Source: an uncultured bacterium (GTDB taxonomy: Bacteria; JADJOY01). Taken from it: a DNA stretch of 64,000 nt. Positions 4,815 through 51,040 of the stretch are shown one piece after another. How positions within the stretch are numbered: position 1 is the stretch's first letter; each line of letters starts with the position of its first letter. The position numbers were made by a program, and so were the translations under genes. The stretch covers positions 6,980 to 70,979 of the forward strand of contig CAZYWA010000001.1 of the NCBI GenBank assembly GCA_964650975.1, given 5' to 3'. Under the pieces are notes generated by a model. The model worked only from the letters and a program-made list of their open reading frames with translations, had not been told where the DNA came from and made no database searches.

Positions 4815-4893
4815 TGGAGGGCGGCGGTCCCTCGCCGCCGCAGCGTCACATTTCGATCGATCGTCGCGGAGGGGAGGACTCGGGTTCCTCCCA
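4815..4893. repeat. REP-like palindromic element copy a: GGAGGGCGGCGGTCCCTCGCCGCCGCAGCG followed by a degenerate second half.
   Basis: Member of a family of 11 or more copies sharing GGAGGGCNGCGGTCCCTCGC and GCGAGGGACCGCGTCCCTCC. Confidence 0.7.
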
Positions 4894-4978
4894 TACTTTT
4901 CGTCCTCCCGACCAGGCCCGCCGCGGAACTCGGCGATTCGCTGACGGGCTCCGAGGCGGCGCTGATATCCTTTCGCGC

Positions 4979-7276
4979 TTGACCTCCGACGCCTCCTCGC
5001 CTCCGGTACTGCCCGCCGCGCCGTCGAGCGCGCCGCGGGCCGAGCTGTTCGCGGTGAGCGTTCTCGTGCTCTTCCTCGAGCTCGCGTGCATTCGCTGGTT
5101 TCCGGCGCACGTTCTCTACCTGACGTTCTTCACCAACACGGTGCTGCTCGCCTCGTTCCTGGGGCTCTCGCTCGGCTGCCTGACCGCGCGCGACCCGCGC
5201 GATCACCTGCGCTGGACGCCGCTGGTGCTGGTCCTGGCTCTCGCGGCGGGGGCCGCGATGGAAACGATCCGGGTGCGGCTCGGGCAGCACCTCGACGTGG
5301 GCCACCAGGCGGCGCCGCAGGTGGTGTTCTTCGGCACCGAGCGCTTCGCGAAGGACCCCACCAAATTCCCGATACCGATCGAGGTCGTCGCGGGGTCGTT
5401 CTTCGTGGCGATCGCGCTCGTGATGATCGGCCCCGGGCAAGCGCTGGGGAGATCGCTCGCGCGATTTCCCGACCGCGTCGAGGCCTACACGATCAACATC
5501 GCCGGGAGCGTCGCGGGTGTCGCGGCGTTCACGCTCGCCTCCTGGGCGCGGCTCTCGCCGCTCTGGTGGTTCGGAGCGGTGGCGCTCCTGCTCGGGCCGC
5601 TGACCCTTCGGTCCCCCGGGACGCGCGGGCGCTGGCGCGTGACGACCGGCGTCGCGCTGGTGCTGATCGTGGCGCTGCCGGCACTCACCACGAGGCACTG
5701 GGCCGGGAAGGGTGCCTCGCGCGAGTCGTACTGGTCGCCTTACTACCGGATCGACTATCGCGGCGCGCCGCGGCGGATCATCGGCGTCAACCTGATCGGG
5801 CACCAGCAGATGCTCGGTCTCGACACACCGGCGCTCGCCTACGCGCTGCCGCACCTCTTCCGCCGGGACTCGGGCGGCGCGCCGTTTCGCGACGTGCTGG
5901 TGATCGGCGCGGGATCGGGGAACGACGTGAGCCGGGCGCTGGCGTTCGGCGCCGAGCACGTGGACGCGGTCGAGATCGATCCGCTCATCCAGCGGCTCGG
6001 CGTCCGCGACCATCCCGACCATCCCTACCAGGACCCGCGAGTGGAAGTGCACATCGACGATGGCCGGAACTTCCTGCGCACCACCAGCCGGAGCTACGAC
6101 CTGATCGTCTACGCGCTCGTCGATTCGCTGGTGCTGCACAGCGGCTACAGCAACATCCGCCTCGAGAGCTACCTCTTCACCCGCGAGGCGCTGGCCGACG
6201 TGCAGCGCCACCTCCGTCCCGGCGGCTGGTTCACGATGTACAACTTTTACCGCCAGGGATGGATCGTCGAGCGCTTGCGGGACAGCGCCCGCGAGGTGTT
6301 CGGCACCGAGCCCTTGGTCTTCCCGGTGCCGTTCCAGCCCACCATCGACGCCGAGAAGAGCTACGAGGACTTCACGATGGTGGTCGCGGGCGGCGACGGC
6401 TCGCTGGCCGCTCTCGAGCGGACCTTCCGCGCGCATCCGCGATTCTGGTTACCGGACGCGGCGCCGCCGCTGCCCTCGACGCCGAATGGCTTCCTCGCCC
6501 GGCCGGAATCCGCCGGCGCCGATTCGAACGGCTGGCAAGGCTTCGCGCCGGCCAACATCGCGAGCTCCGGTCCGCCCGGCGTCGCCACCGACGACTGGCC
6601 GTTTCTCTACCTCCGCCAGCGGCTGATCCCGACGCTCACGTGGCGCGGCGTCTCCACGATGGCGGTCGGCGCGGTCCTGCTGTTCGCGATCTTTGGCCGC
6701 CGCTCGCTCAGCGGCGGCGCCGGCTTCTCCGATGCCGCGATGCTTGCGCTGGGCGCCGGCTTCATGCTGGTCGAGACCAAGGCCGTGGTGCAGATGGCGC
6801 TCCTGCTCGGCAGCACGTGGCTGGTCAACTCGGTGGTGTTTCTGGGCATCTTGCTGGTGATTCTCGCGGCCAACCTGTTCGTGCTGCGCGCGCGCCCGGC
6901 GCGGTTCGCTCCGTTCTTCGTGGGCCTCGCGATGTCGCTGGGAGTGGGCTGGGTCACGCCCATTCACGTCTTCCTGGGCGCCGGGCGCGCGCTCCAGGTG
7001 GCCGTCGCCACCTTGCTCCTGGTGGCGCCGGTTTTCTTCGCGGGCGTGGTGTTCGCGATGTCGCTCGACCGCTGCCGGTACCCCGATCGCGCGCTGGGCT
7101 GGAACGTGGCCGGCGCGATGCTGGGCGGCTGGCTCGAGAACCTGTCGATGGCGGTGGGCTTCGGCGCGCTCTCGGGAGTGGCGCTGGCGATCTACGCCGT
7201 CGCGGCGGCGTTCACGTTCACAGCCAGTTCTTCCGCCGGAACCACGTCACCATCCCCGCCACCGTCGCGATCGTGA
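4979..7276 (+). CDS. Membrane-anchored spermidine synthase-like protein (polyamine aminopropyltransferase fold) with N- and C-terminal multi-TM regions.
   Basis: Motif VLVIGAGSGNDVSRAL...VDAVEIDP...YDLIVYALVDS matches the spermidine synthase / class I methyltransferase fold. Several hydrophobic segments flank it. The start is uncertain: TTG at 4979 or GTG at 5054. Confidence 0.6.
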   Translation: MTSDASSPPVLPAAPSSAPRAELFAVSVLVLFLELACIRWFPAHVLYLTFFTNTVLLASFLGLSLGCLTARDPRDHLRWTPLVLVLALAAGAAMETIRVRLGQHLDVGHQAAPQVVFFGTERFAKDPTKFPIPIEVVAGSFFVAIALVMIGPGQALGRSLARFPDRVEAYTINIAGSVAGVAAFTLASWARLSPLWWFGAVALLLGPLTLRSPGTRGRWRVTTGVALVLIVALPALTTRHWAGKGASRESYWSPYYRIDYRGAPRRIIGVNLIGHQQMLGLDTPALAYALPHLFRRDSGGAPFRDVLVIGAGSGNDVSRALAFGAEHVDAVEIDPLIQRLGVRDHPDHPYQDPRVEVHIDDGRNFLRTTSRSYDLIVYALVDSLVLHSGYSNIRLESYLFTREALADVQRHLRPGGWFTMYNFYRQGWIVERLRDSAREVFGTEPLVFPVPFQPTIDAEKSYEDFTMVVAGGDGSLAALERTFRAHPRFWLPDAAPPLPSTPNGFLARPESAGADSNGWQGFAPANIASSGPPGVATDDWPFLYLRQRLIPTLTWRGVSTMAVGAVLLFAIFGRRSLSGGAGFSDAAMLALGAGFMLVETKAVVQMALLLGSTWLVNSVVFLGILLVILAANLFVLRARPARFAPFFVGLAMSLGVGWVTPIHVFLGAGRALQVAVATLLLVAPVFFAGVVFAMSLDRCRYPDRALGWNVAGAMLGGWLENLSMAVGFGALSGVALAIYAVAAAFTFTASSSAGTTSPSPPPSRS

Positions 7277-49629: not shown

Positions 49630-50943
49630 TCACTCGATCGGCGACATCATCGCGGTGGTGAGCTGCTTCACGACGGCTCCGCAGGTCACGGGCTGCTTGC
49701 TGCCGGCCTCCACGCGCGAGCCGCCGCCGTACGAGGTCGGCCGCACGTCGACGTCGCTCGCCTCGGCGCGCAGCGCGGCGACGGTGGAGCGCTCGCGCGG
49801 GCGGCTCGCGAACGGATCGAAGCGGAAGTGGCGCATCGCGTTCGCGTGGGTGATCTTCTCGATCACCTCGTCGGAAAGCCCGGCGAGCTCGCTCGCCACT
49901 AGCTCCGGCGAGCGCGGCCAGGTGGTGTCCGAGTGCGGATAGTCACACTCCCACGTGATGTTGTCGGGGTTGGCGGCGGCCAGATCGCGGATGCCGGTGC
50001 GATCCGAGATGAAGCACGTCACGATGCGCTCGCGGAAGAGCTCGCTCGGGCGCTTCGCGGAGAAATCCTGGTTGGTCCACAGGTGGTGATGGTCGTAGAC
50101 GTAGTCGATCCGCTCCAGGAAATAAGGCACCCAGCCGATCCCGCCTTCGGAGAGCGCGATCTTGAGCGTGGGGAATTTCCGCAGCATCGGCGACCAAACC
50201 AGGTCCGATGCGCAGTTCACGACGTTGAGCGGGATGAGCGTGATCATCACGTCGATGGGCGCGTCCATTGACGTGAAGTACATGCCCTCGCTCGAGCCGA
50301 TGTGCATGCACACGATGGTGCCGTGGTCCTCGCAGGCCTTCCAGAGCGGATCCCAGTGATCGCTGTGGTACGTGGGCAAGCCGACCTTCGCGGGCTGATC
50401 GCAGAGCGTGATCGCGTGGCAGCCCTTCCGGGCGACGCGCTCGACCTCGCGGGCCGCGAGCGCCGGATCCCAGAGCGGCACCAGCGCCAGCCGAATGAAG
50501 CGGCCGGGCGCCGAGCCGCACCACTCGTCGATGTGCCAGTCGTTGTAGGCCTGCAAGCAAGCGAGGCCCAGCTCCTTGTCCTTCGCCTTGTGGAACACCT
50601 GGCCCGCGAGGCCGGTGAACGACGGGAAACACAGCGACGCGAGTACGCCGTTGGCGTTCATGTCGCGAACTCGCTCGCGCACGTCGTGGCAGCCGCGCCG
50701 GATCTGCTCGAACGAAGTCGGCTCGACGCCGTACTCCTCGGGCGGCCGCCCCGCGACCGCGTTGAGCCCGATGTTGGGGAGCTGCTGGCCCTCGAAGAGC
50801 CACACGTCGCTGCCATCTTTCTTGCGAACGACGCGCGGCGCCCGATCGCGCCACACCGTGGCGACGTGGCGCTCGAACATGTCGGGCGGCTCGACGACGT
50901 GATCGTCGATGCTCACCAGGATGAGGTCATCGAGCTTGGTCAT
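49630..50943 (-). CDS. Amidohydrolase_2-family protein of 437 aa with a C-terminal extension.
   Basis: LILVSIDDHVVEP at the N-terminus, plus internal HxH-type and D motifs of the ACMSD-like superfamily. Confidence 0.65.
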   Translation of the reverse strand: MTKLDDLILVSIDDHVVEPPDMFERHVATVWRDRAPRVVRKKDGSDVWLFEGQQLPNIGLNAVAGRPPEEYGVEPTSFEQIRRGCHDVRERVRDMNANGVLASLCFPSFTGLAGQVFHKAKDKELGLACLQAYNDWHIDEWCGSAPGRFIRLALVPLWDPALAAREVERVARKGCHAITLCDQPAKVGLPTYHSDHWDPLWKACEDHGTIVCMHIGSSEGMYFTSMDAPIDVMITLIPLNVVNCASDLVWSPMLRKFPTLKIALSEGGIGWVPYFLERIDYVYDHHHLWTNQDFSAKRPSELFRERIVTCFISDRTGIRDLAAANPDNITWECDYPHSDTTWPRSPELVASELAGLSDEVIEKITHANAMRHFRFDPFASRPRERSTVAALRAEASDVDVRPTSYGGGSRVEAGSKQPVTCGAVVKQLTTAMMSPIE

Positions 50944-50963
50944 CAGGTCACCGTCGCCGGTCG

Positions 50964-51040
50964 CCGGAGGGCTGCGGTCTCTCGCAGCCGCAACGCACCT
51001 TCTGTTGCAGACGCCGCGGACGCGACGGAGCGCGTGCCTC
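50964..51040. repeat. REP-like element copy k, between the Rieske and amidohydrolase genes.
   Basis: CGGAGGGCTGCGGTCTCTCGCAGCCGCAACG ... CGCGGACGCGACGGAGCGCGTGCCTCCG. Confidence 0.65.

Follow-up and report, generated by a model that had tools for sequence, protein, structure and literature searches.

Repeat Units in the Window

The locus is a 64-kb stretch of DNA from an uncultured bacterium (the whole of this stretch is termed here the window), in which the intergenic regions next to genes such as spoVR, corA, panB, panC and panD carry a hairpin-forming repeat with a GGAG foot. A covariance model with 18 copies as input, run over the whole window with no filters, found 25 units at 16 intergenic sites; the accepted units scored 19–59 bits (E <= 0.044), and the noise floor is set by the next matches, which scored below 16 bits. 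The sites, with their weaker members, are the following:

4810..4892, plus strand: degenerate 77-nt doublet downstream of spoVR; core 4816-4839, 52.5 bits
4868-4892: diverged right half of the preceding doublet, a GGAG-foot hairpin followed by a T-run
8475..8550: 76-nt inverted doublet separating corA (7218-8378, minus strand) from a queuosine-salvage gene (8593-9600, plus strand), the starts of which diverge; 54.6 and 42.1 bits
9602..9641, plus strand: single unit, 7 nt past the stop of the queuosine-salvage gene; core 9608-9631, 57.8 bits
10254..10393: diverged tetraloop unit (core 10260-10283) and 76-nt doublet (10312-10387) downstream of a glyoxalase-family gene; 22.8, 55.9 and 54.1 bits
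10786..10878: head-to-head pair (minus-strand unit 10796-10819, plus-strand unit 10845-10868), GGAG feet facing across a 25-nt spacer, 11 nt from the stop of the gene at 10880-12457; 56.3 and 55.5 bits
12505..12544, minus strand: single unit between a LolA-like gene (stop 12555) and the next downstream minus-strand gene; core 12515-12538, 52.9 bits
15147..15222: 76-nt doublet in the panB–panC gap (panB stop 15143, panC start 15243); 45.1 and 53.9 bits
16673..16749: minus-strand unit (core 16683-16707; 58.6 bits, the top score in the window) 17 nt past the panD stop, with a truncated plus-strand partner (16727-16749; 9.0 bits)
22653..22744, plus strand: two diverged direct units between convergent genes, cores 22659-22687 (22653-22692, 9.2 bits) and 22711-22734 (22705-22744, 32.3 bits)
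23497..23535, plus strand: probable diverged member between divergent starts, GGAG + GGACCGGC-TCCC-GCCGGTCC; 11.1 bits, under the clean threshold
30482..30557: 76-nt doublet between minus-strand genes that are co-directional, shortly past the stop of an HpcH/HpaI-family gene (30628-31611) and 5' of the start of 28432-30018; 42.1 and 56.1 bits
34221..34335: head-to-head sub-family pair between divergent starts, GGAG-GCCCGCCG-GTCCCT on the minus strand and GGA-GCGCGCG-TGGTCCCT on the plus strand; 40.1 and 19.7 bits
35520..35635: three-unit cluster between co-directional genes, 35528-35553 minus, 35568-35596 plus and 35612-35635 minus (this third unit from the hairpin listing); 37.6 and 22.5 bits
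40086..40123, minus strand: weak short-stem unit, core 40099-40117; 19.3 bits, E = 0.044, the lowest score among the accepted copies
45513..45607: doublet between minus-strand genes, with a short internal duplication in the right arm; 31.8 and 36.8 bits
50966..51041: 76-nt doublet between minus-strand genes; 48.6 and 48.0 bits

Simple pattern searches gave a similar picture: the motif GGAGGGCNGCGGTCCCTCGC with up to 3 mismatches has 15 matches in the window against 0.21 expected, a number never reached in shuffles, and the broader pattern GGAGGGNNGCGNTCCNTCGCNNCCGC has 18, again against 0.21 expected. The first-pass annotation had described a REP-like family with 11 named positions, every one of which contains copies; its count of "11 or more" was nevertheless too low, since it overlooked second halves in the doublets as well as several diverged copies (10254, 22705, 34221, 34296, 35520, 35568 and 40086). 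The element at 23497..23535 probably belongs to the family, to judge from its foot, 8-bp stem and TCCC loop, which are as in 10260-10283, and it is 80% complementary to 35595-35635. The stretch 4811-4897 aligns to the doublet reference at 70%, and the panB–panC doublet, whose flanking genes are identified by matches to PF02548 (14325-15143) and PF02569 (15243-16091) in keeping with their earlier naming, has a polarity opposite to that of 10312-10387 and is 90% complementary to 10311-10387. The public gene call extends uninterrupted across the doublet at 30482..30557.

All 16 sites lie outside coding sequence, for which the probability by chance is P ~6e-15, because intergenic DNA makes up only 13% of the window. 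The sole apparent overlap, at 12515-12538, falls in the opening codons of a crude gene call, the orthologue of which in the syntenic locus L221 is 31 codons shorter. In total, the repeats amount to ~1.1 kb, or 13% of the intergenic DNA of the window. The density of ~0.4 units per kb is near that of S. maltophilia and higher than that of E. coli. The proximity of copies to start and stop codons (within 60 nt), which had been noted earlier, is mostly a product of short intergenic gaps; many copies lie directly 3' of stop codons, but 3/16 sites lie between divergent gene starts and not at 3' ends.

Hairpin Structure and the Doublet

The unit combines a GGAG foot with a G+C stem of 7 bp, a 6-nt loop that includes TCC and a GCAGCG tail, the building block being (T/C)C-GGAG-(7-bp G+C stem)-(6-nt loop N-TCC-N-T)-(stem')-GCAGCG. 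Two unit types alternate, one with stem C-N-G and loop GTCCCT and the other with stem A-C-G and loop CTCCGT or GTCCCT. For the 124 distinct units gathered from this window and from other genomes, pairing holds in 98.6% of cells (84.5% in shuffles), 115 cells carry double-sided changes (28 in shuffles), and the covariation score is 0.35 as against 0.076, a signal that disappears when the partners are slid by 1–3 columns. Of 118 exact matches to the pattern in other genomes, 107 have complementary bases at the two stem positions that the pattern leaves free, representing nine pair types, and the loop positions N1/N2 co-vary (C/G 97, G/C 14, A/T 5). The stem is thus maintained through compensatory changes, and the foot and the loop are maintained in sequence. 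Such conservation would fit selection at the DNA level and at the RNA level alike.

Inverted doublets of exactly 76 nt occur at six window sites, in the layout of REPINs and BIMEs, and the outer length is 76–78 nt in 44 of 51 doublets from related metagenome contigs. A complete doublet is able to fold as a single long imperfect hairpin, with the units tail to tail. The predicted fold is strong for the doublets at 8475..8550 (-30.6 kcal/mol, z = -3.8), 30482..30557 (-26.4 kcal/mol, z = -4.5) and 45513..45607 (-41.1 kcal/mol, z = -8.2) and for the head-to-head pair at 10786..10878 (-39.1 kcal/mol, z = -6.4); that at 50966..51041 folds no better than shuffles (z = -0.5) and so looks like a decaying copy. 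The 30-nt sequence originally taken as the unit is probably not the replicating piece: given the constancy of the outer length, the piece that multiplies in this lineage is most likely the 76–78-nt doublet of two tail-to-tail hairpins. The REP/BIME-type architecture itself stands, the repeat being a short G+C-rich palindrome that is only extragenic and that occurs either singly or in inverted pairs of fixed spacing.

Dispersal and Turnover of the Repeat

The family is present on at least 119 metagenome contigs or stretches, most of which are contigs of sample Ga0265320, where part of the window also recurs at 99.97% identity. Restriction of the motif to this region, which would have counted against the first reading of the window, is therefore not what is seen: copies are scattered genome-wide and are strictly intergenic. 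A 26-nt core was found in ~46 assemblies labelled as many phyla, the labels being those of the MAG records, and an estimated 1–10 matches would be expected by chance across the whole sequence collection. The core of the unit at 12505..12544, GGAGGGACGCGCTCCGTCGCGTCCGC, is identical to the commonest form in other phyla. A few single cross-phylum matches sit within long ORFs and may be chance matches or in-frame insertions. In other organisms, the hairpin occurs inside longer repeated elements, so that membership in a longer mobile element, which had been named as a ground for rejecting the REP reading, holds in part outside the window; the window copies stand alone.

A comparison with relatives of conserved gene order, of the kind that had been proposed, revealed presence/absence polymorphism. 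In L221, where PanC is 75% identical, eight window sites are empty. The panB–panC gap measures 99 nt in the window, as against 14 nt (L221) and 10 nt (L225); that between the queuosine-salvage and glyoxalase genes is 100 nt as against 10 nt in L221, which has no unit there; the convergent gap downstream of the glyoxalase-family gene is 654 nt as against 49 nt; and the gap orthologous to the 12505..12544 site is 7 nt. No unit lies at the position in L221 orthologous to the panD-downstream site (16673..16749). Conversely, the single, weak unit of L221 is at a site where the window has none, and all the units of L224 are in one array of ~18 between dnaE2 and corA. No insertion site common to the window and its syntenic relatives was found. 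This turnover, despite the conserved gene order, fits a selfish element better than a site-specific function.

Related Repeats and the Search for a Mobilising Enzyme

The closest known systems are the REP/BIME/REPIN repeats with their RAYT (TnpA_REP) enzymes in E. coli, Pseudomonas and Stenotrophomonas (SMAG). Both groups have a G+C-rich imperfect palindrome of 20–40 nt whose stem is immediately preceded on its 5' side by a 4-nt foot, a strictly extragenic location at high density, an alternation of two unit types, a constant spacing within inverted doublets, larger alternating arrays in a relative (here L006 8-259 and L224 1441-2311) and a fast turnover of sites. They differ in that the foot is GT[AG]G in the GTAG super-family (Di Nocera et al. 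2013, PMC3733652) and GGAG here, in that no REPtron was found for the GGAG family, and in that the latter keeps a second element, the TCC loop, in sequence and has a core that is near-identical across many phyla. Rfam has no match to the consensus, which was found neither by sequence in the literature nor in the supplements of two REP catalogues, in agreement with the initial impression that it was not a recognised one. The CGTC-tagged REPs of Alphaproteobacteria and the RPE-like elements of Rickettsia (PMC3733652) are also small tagged palindromes, sometimes in-frame in genes, but their tag is terminal, whereas the GGAG family has CGTC only within one loop variant and never at the end. TnpA_Y1 genes of class 3 and of subclass 2.6 (Quentin et al. 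2018, PMC6006769) are flanked by atypical hairpin repeats, of which Solibacter usitatus, for example, has ~600; these share with the present family a high copy number and a non-GTAG foot, and they occur in Planctomycetes, Acidobacteria and Proteobacteria. However, the class 3 foot is CnGA, and no class 3 TnpA_Y1 gene was seen beside the GGAG family.

The window was said to lack a RAYT gene, and indeed neither tblastn with three RAYT queries nor a profile from 172 RAYT homologues detected one there. The idea that the copies are RAYT targets fares less well: the foot is GGAG instead of the defining GT[AG]G, and all the canonical RAYTs inspected are flanked by GTAG REPs and not by the GGAG family, including that of L006 (7235-7711) and those of L227, L229, L232, L240 and L242, which were looked up separately. 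Canonical GTAG-type RAYTs are therefore unlikely to be the mobilising enzyme. The GTAG REP GTAGCGCGGGGGCT(C/T)GTCCCCCGC lies beside related RAYTs in three assemblies, among them a 'Deltaproteobacteria' MAG and a Planctomycetes MAG, which indicates that REP cores can move between phyla with their enzyme. A RAYT-like gene in L236-L238, in which Glu replaces the catalytic Tyr, has just downstream units that are essentially the two types of 34221..34335, the first with the stem GCCCACCG as in 35528-35553; this adjacency is weak evidence, because ~30% of intergenic gaps contain units anyway.

Neither the window nor ~1.2 Mb of sequence chosen for carrying the repeat yielded a cognate enzyme; in the latter, Y1 genes occur in just four loci (L006, L183, L209 and L213), and no transposase family recurs beside units in 99 loci. 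The only enzyme lead is an IS200-like Y1 with a Y---Q--HH motif: L183, L209 and L213 have remnants of its gene, then 150–240 conserved nt, then a GGAG doublet, and seven further loci have gene-less copies ending in the same doublet. The link between this gene and the doublet is thin: the copies are decayed paralogues in one soil organism (53–59% G+C), only their 3' side is visible, and their nested 5' truncations run counter to the peel-and-paste prediction.

Origin of the Repeat

This lead raises an alternative, namely that the hairpins are miniature derivatives (PATEs or MITEs) of the ends of an IS200-like Y1 element rather than a REP–RAYT system, the doublet being a fused or duplicated sub-terminal IS hairpin that would move whenever there is a full copy to mobilise it. 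The fixed distance from gene to doublet and the common 3' end of the gene-less copies are in its favour, as are the similarity between copies, which stops 10–40 nt past the first hairpin or past the doublet, the score of the gene (NCBIfam transpos_IS200 55.8 bits, cut-off 55; RAYT cut-off not reached) and its Bacteroidota homologues, which likewise lie between inverted hairpins. IS200/IS605 sub-terminal hairpins and PATEs resemble the family, too, in having a short guide or foot at the base and no visible target duplication. We nevertheless consider this origin unlikely: neither of the two visible gene copies is intact (L183 has an in-frame stop, and L213 is truncated at its 5' end) and the left end is unseen; the gene is absent from the window and from the contigs of the window's own sample, and the window copies have no surrounding IS sequence; the copy series is 5'-truncated; and the Y1 subclass in question (1.2) is described as having few copies and, in general, no IS-type terminal structures (PMC6006769).

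Another possibility is that copies are retained mainly for use by the host, as RNA 3'-end hairpins that would terminate transcripts or stabilise mRNA, or as sites bound by a conserved DNA- or RNA-binding protein, in which case functional constraint and not a transposase would explain the conservation of foot and loop across phyla. A fixed foot and TCC loop on a variable stem are what is expected of a hairpin recognised by a protein, many copies follow stop codons directly, and the opposite-strand loops, A-N-GGA-N, resemble the CsrA-type loop consensus, which is a lead only. However, no unit in the window carries an intrinsic-terminator T-run (the only stretch that scores as terminator-like is 4872-4892), some sites separate divergent starts, a crude count in tandem-gene contexts of other genomes (26 sense, 29 antisense) reveals no orientation bias, Rfam has no entry and insertion sites are not conserved between relatives, all of which make this explanation quite improbable. 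It is very improbable that the repeats are ordinary MITEs, bounded by terminal inverted repeats and mobilised by a DDE transposase, as a ~135-nt composite of two GGAG hairpins within inverted repeats GAGSCAATTGCAAAAC in Smithellaceae and one Verrucomicrobiota MAG might suggest: the window copies are the palindrome alone, with neither the composite ends nor, in flanks read by eye, a target-site duplication around the doublets, and no transposase recurs beside units in 99 loci.

The GGAG family is, on balance, probably a set of REP/REPIN-type repeats that form hairpins and are non-autonomous, spread as single-stranded DNA by an HUH Y1 enzyme encoded elsewhere in the genome. A foot plus a hairpin is the anatomy of REP and IS200 ends (PMC6006769), and this anatomy, together with the lack of visible flank duplications, is consistent with an HUH-type enzyme. 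Copies would move as single-stranded hairpins, to be cut and rejoined at the foot by a Y1 enzyme of the IS200/RAYT superfamily; effects on transcripts, such as those of 3'-end hairpins, would be secondary. The family is built like REP/REPIN repeats and differs from them in its GGAG foot and in a core almost unchanged across phyla. The class 3 and subclass 2.6 hairpins show that a non-canonical foot can accompany a non-canonical Y1 enzyme, and the near-identity of the core in many phyla may reflect its horizontal spread along with such an enzyme.

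Anatomy and copy number of the GGAG hairpin

The first-pass annotation had proposed a REP-like palindromic family of 11 or more copies in the window. Its consensus, with up to three mismatches, matches the window 15 times against 0.21 expected, and a pattern admitting both loop variants matches 18 times against the same expectation. An unfiltered scan of the entire window with a covariance model made from 18 aligned copies returned 25 units scoring 19–59 bits, with a clean drop to the next matches, which score below 16 bits. All 11 positions in the annotation are among these hits, so that the family is real but was under-counted; the annotation had omitted the second member of several pairs, as well as diverged copies at 10254, 22705, 34221, 34296, 35520, 35568 and 40086.

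The unit reads (T/C)C-GGAG-GG-N-N-GCG / N-TCC-N-T / CGC-N'-N'-CC-GCAGCG. Its GGAG foot leads into a 7-bp stem capped by a 6-nt loop, and a short tail follows. Like a REP, it is a short (20–40 nt), G+C-rich, imperfect palindrome that forms a stem-loop. The foot is invariant or nearly so in the 18-copy window alignment; in the cross-phylum matches described below it is fixed by the search pattern, and those matches are no independent test of it. Two unit types predominate, and sub-families with other stems retain the GGAG foot and the TCC(C) loop.

Unit types of the GGAG family
Type A: stem C-N-G, loop GTCCCT
Type B: stem A-C-G, loop CTCCGT or GTCCCT

Tail-to-tail inverted doublets (A then B) occupy six sites in the window, and their outer length is exactly 76 nt at every one. 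Two unit types paired in inverted orientation and at a constant distance make up the arrangement of a BIME or REPIN doublet. Other pairs, and the two polarities, are as follows.

Paired units in the window
4816–4892, seventh doublet site, 77 nt, right half mutated
10312–10387, doublet
10796–10868, the one head-to-head pair
15147–15222, doublet, reverse complement of 10312–10387 (90%)

In metagenome contigs dominated by Ga0265320, a sample that also holds the window's organism, 44 of 51 tail-to-tail pairs measure 76–78 nt. This fixed length points to the doublet, rather than the 30-nt unit, as the entity that is copied. Single units look like half-decayed doublets, since they share the tail GCAGCG...TCGATCG with the doublet spacer. 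A single-stranded doublet folds into a long imperfect hairpin or a three-way junction (-23 to -41 kcal/mol), with z-scores of -2.5 to -8.2 in five of the six.

Placement in the window

On a GC3-based gene map of the window (66–72% G+C), the units lie at 16 sites, all of them non-coding; because intergenic DNA makes up only 13% of the window, this placement has P ~6e-15. The repeats amount to ~1.1 kb, or 13% of the window's intergenic DNA. The sole apparent coding overlap (12515–12538) falls in the first codons of an over-long gene call, the orthologue of which in the syntenic relative L221 is 31 codons shorter. The family is thus extragenic, dispersed and, as shown below, present in many copies genome-wide, as REPs are.

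Gene calls can also run across the repeats. On L100, a public locus, the public call at 2869–5037 (window about 28430–30600, minus strand) is a 722-aa protein without a Pfam hit that spans the doublet at 30482–30557; a GC3-based call of the same ORF ends at 528 aa. Repeats of this kind therefore inflate ORF predictions. Separately, between the doublet at 10312–10387 and the head-to-head pair lies a 400-nt stretch of lower G+C (0.62; 10391–10790). L221 has just 49 nt in the orthologous gap, and no similar sequence occurs in any fetched locus; this stretch may have been carried between repeats, as cargo or as a remnant.

The window also contains another dispersed repeat, unrelated to the GGAG family. 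It consists of a hairpin, GGGGGGCT-TTC-AGCCCCCC, followed by GCCCCA, a variable hairpin and GGGGCCCCACCCCCAAGSCGGCTC, and it recurs in locus L058, in two loci of JADJOY01 and on 12 or more contigs from the same metagenome. The start of the window (1–4704) holds a large ORF (1–1809) that runs off its edge and, from the gene order, looks like prkA, followed by a DUF444 gene (PF04285) and a SpoVR gene (PF04293); we take this set to resemble a prkA-yeaH-ycgB-type stress operon and to be ordinary context.

Copies of the second repeat
1856–1990, plus strand
4670–4735, plus strand
40163–40250, minus strand

Constraint on the hairpin and possible RNA roles

The window and other genomes supplied 130 units for an alignment, 124 of them distinct. 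At its stem positions, 98.6% of cells hold standard pairs (84.5% in shuffles), and cells with double-sided changes number 115 (28 in shuffles). Covariation scores 0.35 versus 0.076, the signal disappears when partners are slid by one to three columns, and compensatory changes occur at four of the seven stem pairs. With a pattern leaving two stem positions free, these were complementary in 107 of 118 exact matches, with nine pair types; in the same matches two free loop positions co-vary (C/G 97, G/C 14, A/T 5). The foot and the TCC loop are conserved in sequence and the stem in structure only, a pattern that, as far as sequence can tell, is characteristic of a hairpin recognised by a protein, with either DNA or RNA as the substrate. 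Pairing of the 5' GGAG with the loop, as a pseudoknot or alternative hairpin, was considered and dropped because the loop variant ATCCT breaks it.

Lacking T-runs, the GGAG units do not register as intrinsic terminators; the only stretch that does is 4872–4892, the mutated half. In other genomes, a crude gene caller and count gave 26 units in sense and 29 in antisense orientation to transcription. The absent T-runs, this lack of bias and the location of three sites between divergent promoters argue against a primary role as terminators. Rfam at its gathering thresholds gave zero matches over the whole window, and a permissive search of 8300–16900, which holds 12 units, gave only sub-threshold noise of miRNA-type hairpins.

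Genome-wide spread and turnover of sites

The window's SucD is encoded on contigs of ENA ERZ27245402 and JGI 3300031240 (Ga0265320) that are 99.97–99.98% identical to the window. Restriction of the motif to this region, which the first-pass annotation had named as evidence against its reading, is not what is found: the loop variant of the window itself was detected on at least 119 metagenome stretches, most of the matches listed being on different Ga0265320 contigs.

Syntenic relatives were located via PanC homologues, namely L221 (JAXLQJ010000032.1; PanC 75% identical), L224 (JADJOY010000061.1) and L225, a wastewater contig (both 74% identical). A BLAST of joined flanks for filled and empty sites was uninformative, since every fetched locus had been chosen for containing a unit. 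The window and these relatives share their gene order from corA through panD and further on, and the gaps differ.

Lengths of orthologous gaps
panB to panC: window 99 nt, with a doublet; L221 14 nt; L225 10 nt
Queuosine-salvage gene to glyoxalase gene: window 100 nt; L221 10 nt
Glyoxalase gene to convergent gene: window 654 nt; L221 49 nt
LolA-like gene to next gene: window with a unit, about 97 nt by an estimate based on the length of the L221 gene; L221 7 nt

Of the window sites, eight have no unit in L221. Across the 20.8 kb of that locus the covariance model found no strong unit and a single weak one, where the window has none. Every unit of L224 lies within one array of about 18, between dnaE2 and corA. 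The comparison with related genomes suggested earlier thus reveals presence/absence polymorphism at orthologous sites. Since no site is common to the window, L221 and L224, the pattern is one of turnover of a mobile element and not of conservation of functional sites. Reading of the doublet flanks found no direct repeat indicative of target-site duplication; the gaps have diverged such that exact empty-site junctions cannot be aligned.

JADJOY010000061.1 carries two BIME-like arrays of alternating units, at L006 8–259 and L224 1441–2311, one with a 72-nt period and the other being this array of about 18 units. They bracket a cassette with the order imuA-RAYT-imuB-RAYT-dnaE2.

Distribution across phyla

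With one genome scanned per species, GGAGGGNNGCGNTCCNTCGCNNCCGC was found in at least 99 stretches from at least about 46 assemblies. Closed genomes, such as OY829953.1, are among the carriers of the family. Among the matches listed, and by the labels of the MAG records, the carriers include 'Deltaproteobacteria', Smithellaceae, Desulfobacterales and Desulfuromonadales; Planctomycetaceae, Phycisphaerae, Brocadiaceae and Thermogutta; Verrucomicrobia, Opitutae, Lentimonas and Coraliomargarita; Kiritimatiellae and Lentisphaerae; and Chthonomonadaceae, Terriglobia and Binatia. The commonest core among these matches, GGAGGGACGCGCTCCGTCGCGTCCGC, is identical to that of four window copies. The carrier loci range from 46 to 73% G+C, so the G+C-rich core often lies within A+T-rich flanks. 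Many copies in other genomes are inverted pairs with a lineage-specific spacing of 50–100 nt.

By our own estimate, about 1–10 matches would arise by chance across the entire collection. Some single cross-phylum matches fall within long ORFs and may be due to chance or to in-frame insertion; the multi-copy cases are not due to chance.

A composite repeat of ~135 nt, bounded by inverted repeats GAGSCAATTGCAAAAC and enclosing two GGAG hairpins, is common to two MAGs labelled as different phyla, a Smithellaceae MAG (L008, L012, L024, L030, L032, L042, L054 and L057) and a Verrucomicrobiota MAG (L044, L051 and L098). In the former a larger repeat encloses it, and tRNA genes adjoin two of the copies.

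The search for a mobilising enzyme

The first-pass annotation had seen no RAYT gene in the window; a search by tblastn and with a 172-sequence profile likewise found neither a RAYT nor any other Y1 gene there. No recurrent protein family adjoins the units. In ~1.2 Mb of repeat-bearing loci, the same searches found Y1 genes only in L006, L183, L209 and L213.

L006, from a JADJOY01 relative, has two Y1 genes in an imuA-like/imuB-like/dnaE2 cassette. One of them (7235–7711) passes the NCBIfam RAYT cut-off (93.6 bits) and has around it five copies of another REP, one with a GTAG foot, that occurs nowhere else in 226 loci. This REP, GTAGCGCGGGGGCT(C/T)GTCCCCCGC, was found only around that gene (L006 7005–7745). 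RAYTs related to it in other phyla, from a Planctomycetes MAG and a further assembly (loci L227 and L232), have an almost identical GTAG REP on their flanks, and two further RAYTs carry GTAG REPs of their own; in all, six RAYT loci, with every canonical RAYT inspected, are flanked by GTAG REPs and not by the GGAG family. Canonical RAYTs are therefore associated with GTAG feet and unlikely to be the partners of the GGAG family. The occurrence of a near-identical GTAG REP across phyla, travelling with its enzyme, is a precedent for the distribution of the GGAG family.

The second L006 gene (4554–5066) is RAYT-like but has EVLENP, with Glu for Tyr, where RAYTs have the catalytic Y-x-x-x-N-P. Its orthologues are 73–91% identical, and it is also found at L236 71–601 and L239 10001–10495. 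In L006 and in the loci L236–L238, this Tyr-less gene sits between the imuA-like and imuB-like genes, and in L236–L238 the 170-nt gap downstream of it contains two GGAG/GTCCCT units of window sub-families. One orthologue, with the two units in its gap, was recovered from samples that are sisters to that of the window. This adjacency proves little, because about 30% of gaps hold units.

A profile search of fetched DNA revealed remnants of an IS200-like Y1 gene on L183, L209 and L213, metagenome contigs of 53–59% G+C. This gene has an HVH motif and Y---Q--HH, and scores 55.8 bits on NCBIfam transpos_IS200 (cut-off 55). Y---Q--HH is the signature of TnpA_Y1 subclass 1.2 (PMC6006769). The gene is followed by 150–240 conserved nt and then by a GGAG doublet (L183 3–720; L209 1–334; L213 123–692), and gene-less, 5'-shortened, nested copies end in the same doublet in seven other loci (L134, L152, L167, L214, L189, L148 and L200). 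On the three contigs, the gene copies are decayed and only the right side of the element is visible. Bacteroidota homologues of the gene are bracketed by inverted hairpins of a different sequence. No further copies were found on viral contigs, and plasmids yielded only distant Bacteroidota homologues. This link between the hairpin and a Y1 gene, seen once, in one organism and on one side, is the best lead.

Comparison with known systems

REPs are defined by a conserved 5' foot, GT[AG]G, the guide sequence for TnpA_REP (PMC6006769, PMC3733652). The GGAG family resembles REPs, BIMEs and REPINs in its palindrome, extragenic high copy number, alternating doublets and turnover, but it differs in lacking this defining foot. 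A REP system also includes a REPtron, a cognate RAYT gene bordered by its own REPs; the nearest case in the loci covered is the Tyr-less RAYT-like gene of L236–L238 with its two downstream units. The BIME/REP architecture named in the first-pass annotation is supported. Its remark that the consensus was not one it recognised was borne out: the consensus is not listed in REP catalogues and their supplements, searches of the literature by sequence or peptide string gave one irrelevant match and by keyword no description, and Rfam has none either. The family is new in its non-canonical foot, its missing enzyme and the breadth of its distribution; its layout is of a known REP/REPIN kind.

Like the miniature derivatives of IS200/IS605 (PATEs), the family has no terminal inverted repeats beyond its hairpins and, on reading of the doublet flanks, no target-site duplication. 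As a PATE, its hairpins would also form both sub-terminal ends of a full element encoding a Y1 transposase, of which L183, L209 and L213 show the right side. The hairpins of class 3 TnpA_Y1 have a CnGA foot and accompany a class 3 gene (Y----Q motif), whereas the GGAG family has its own foot and no such gene near its units. CGTC-tagged REPs have a terminal CGTC, in contrast to the GGAG and GCAGCG ends of this family. A DDE-type MITE was rejected for this genome, the window copies being without terminal inverted repeats or target-site duplication; composites bounded by inverted repeats and containing GGAG hairpins occur only in other phyla. CRISPR and integron attC arrays were rejected, there being no unique spacers and no uniform orientation, with sites between housekeeping genes.

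A possible mode of propagation and its significance

The GGAG family is dispersed, intergenic and polymorphic in presence, with a structure-constrained doublet of fixed geometry and no visible target duplication. We infer that the hairpin may propagate as single-stranded DNA through an HUH Y1 enzyme that would act in trans at the GGAG foot, and its spread across phyla would accompany that enzyme. That the GGAG/TCC-loop hairpin is a single REPIN-like replicator, which has repeatedly crossed phyla and is mobilised by a non-canonical Y1 enzyme (IS200-like, Y---Q--HH), is a tentative reading to which we give a low probability.

REPs and REPINs are usually described as lineage-specific partners of a vertically inherited RAYT that recognises the GTAG foot. 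The GGAG family has the full REPIN layout and a clear turnover, yet its foot is different, a TCC loop is a second element conserved in its sequence and its core is found in many phyla. These differences point to an unrecognised enzyme–hairpin pairing in the HUH Y1 superfamily and to the horizontal spread of a replicator.

There are also consequences for annotation and assembly: GGAG copies are overrun by public gene calls, and the family is a probable cause of breaks in assemblies, as the Y1 genes are found on contigs of ~1 kb. To our knowledge, the IS200-like Y---Q--HH subclass has so far been without a function, as have some other Y1 subclasses. For these, the GGAG hairpin is a concrete and testable substrate and, if the proposed pairing is true, the Y---Q--HH subclass would gain both a substrate and a role.
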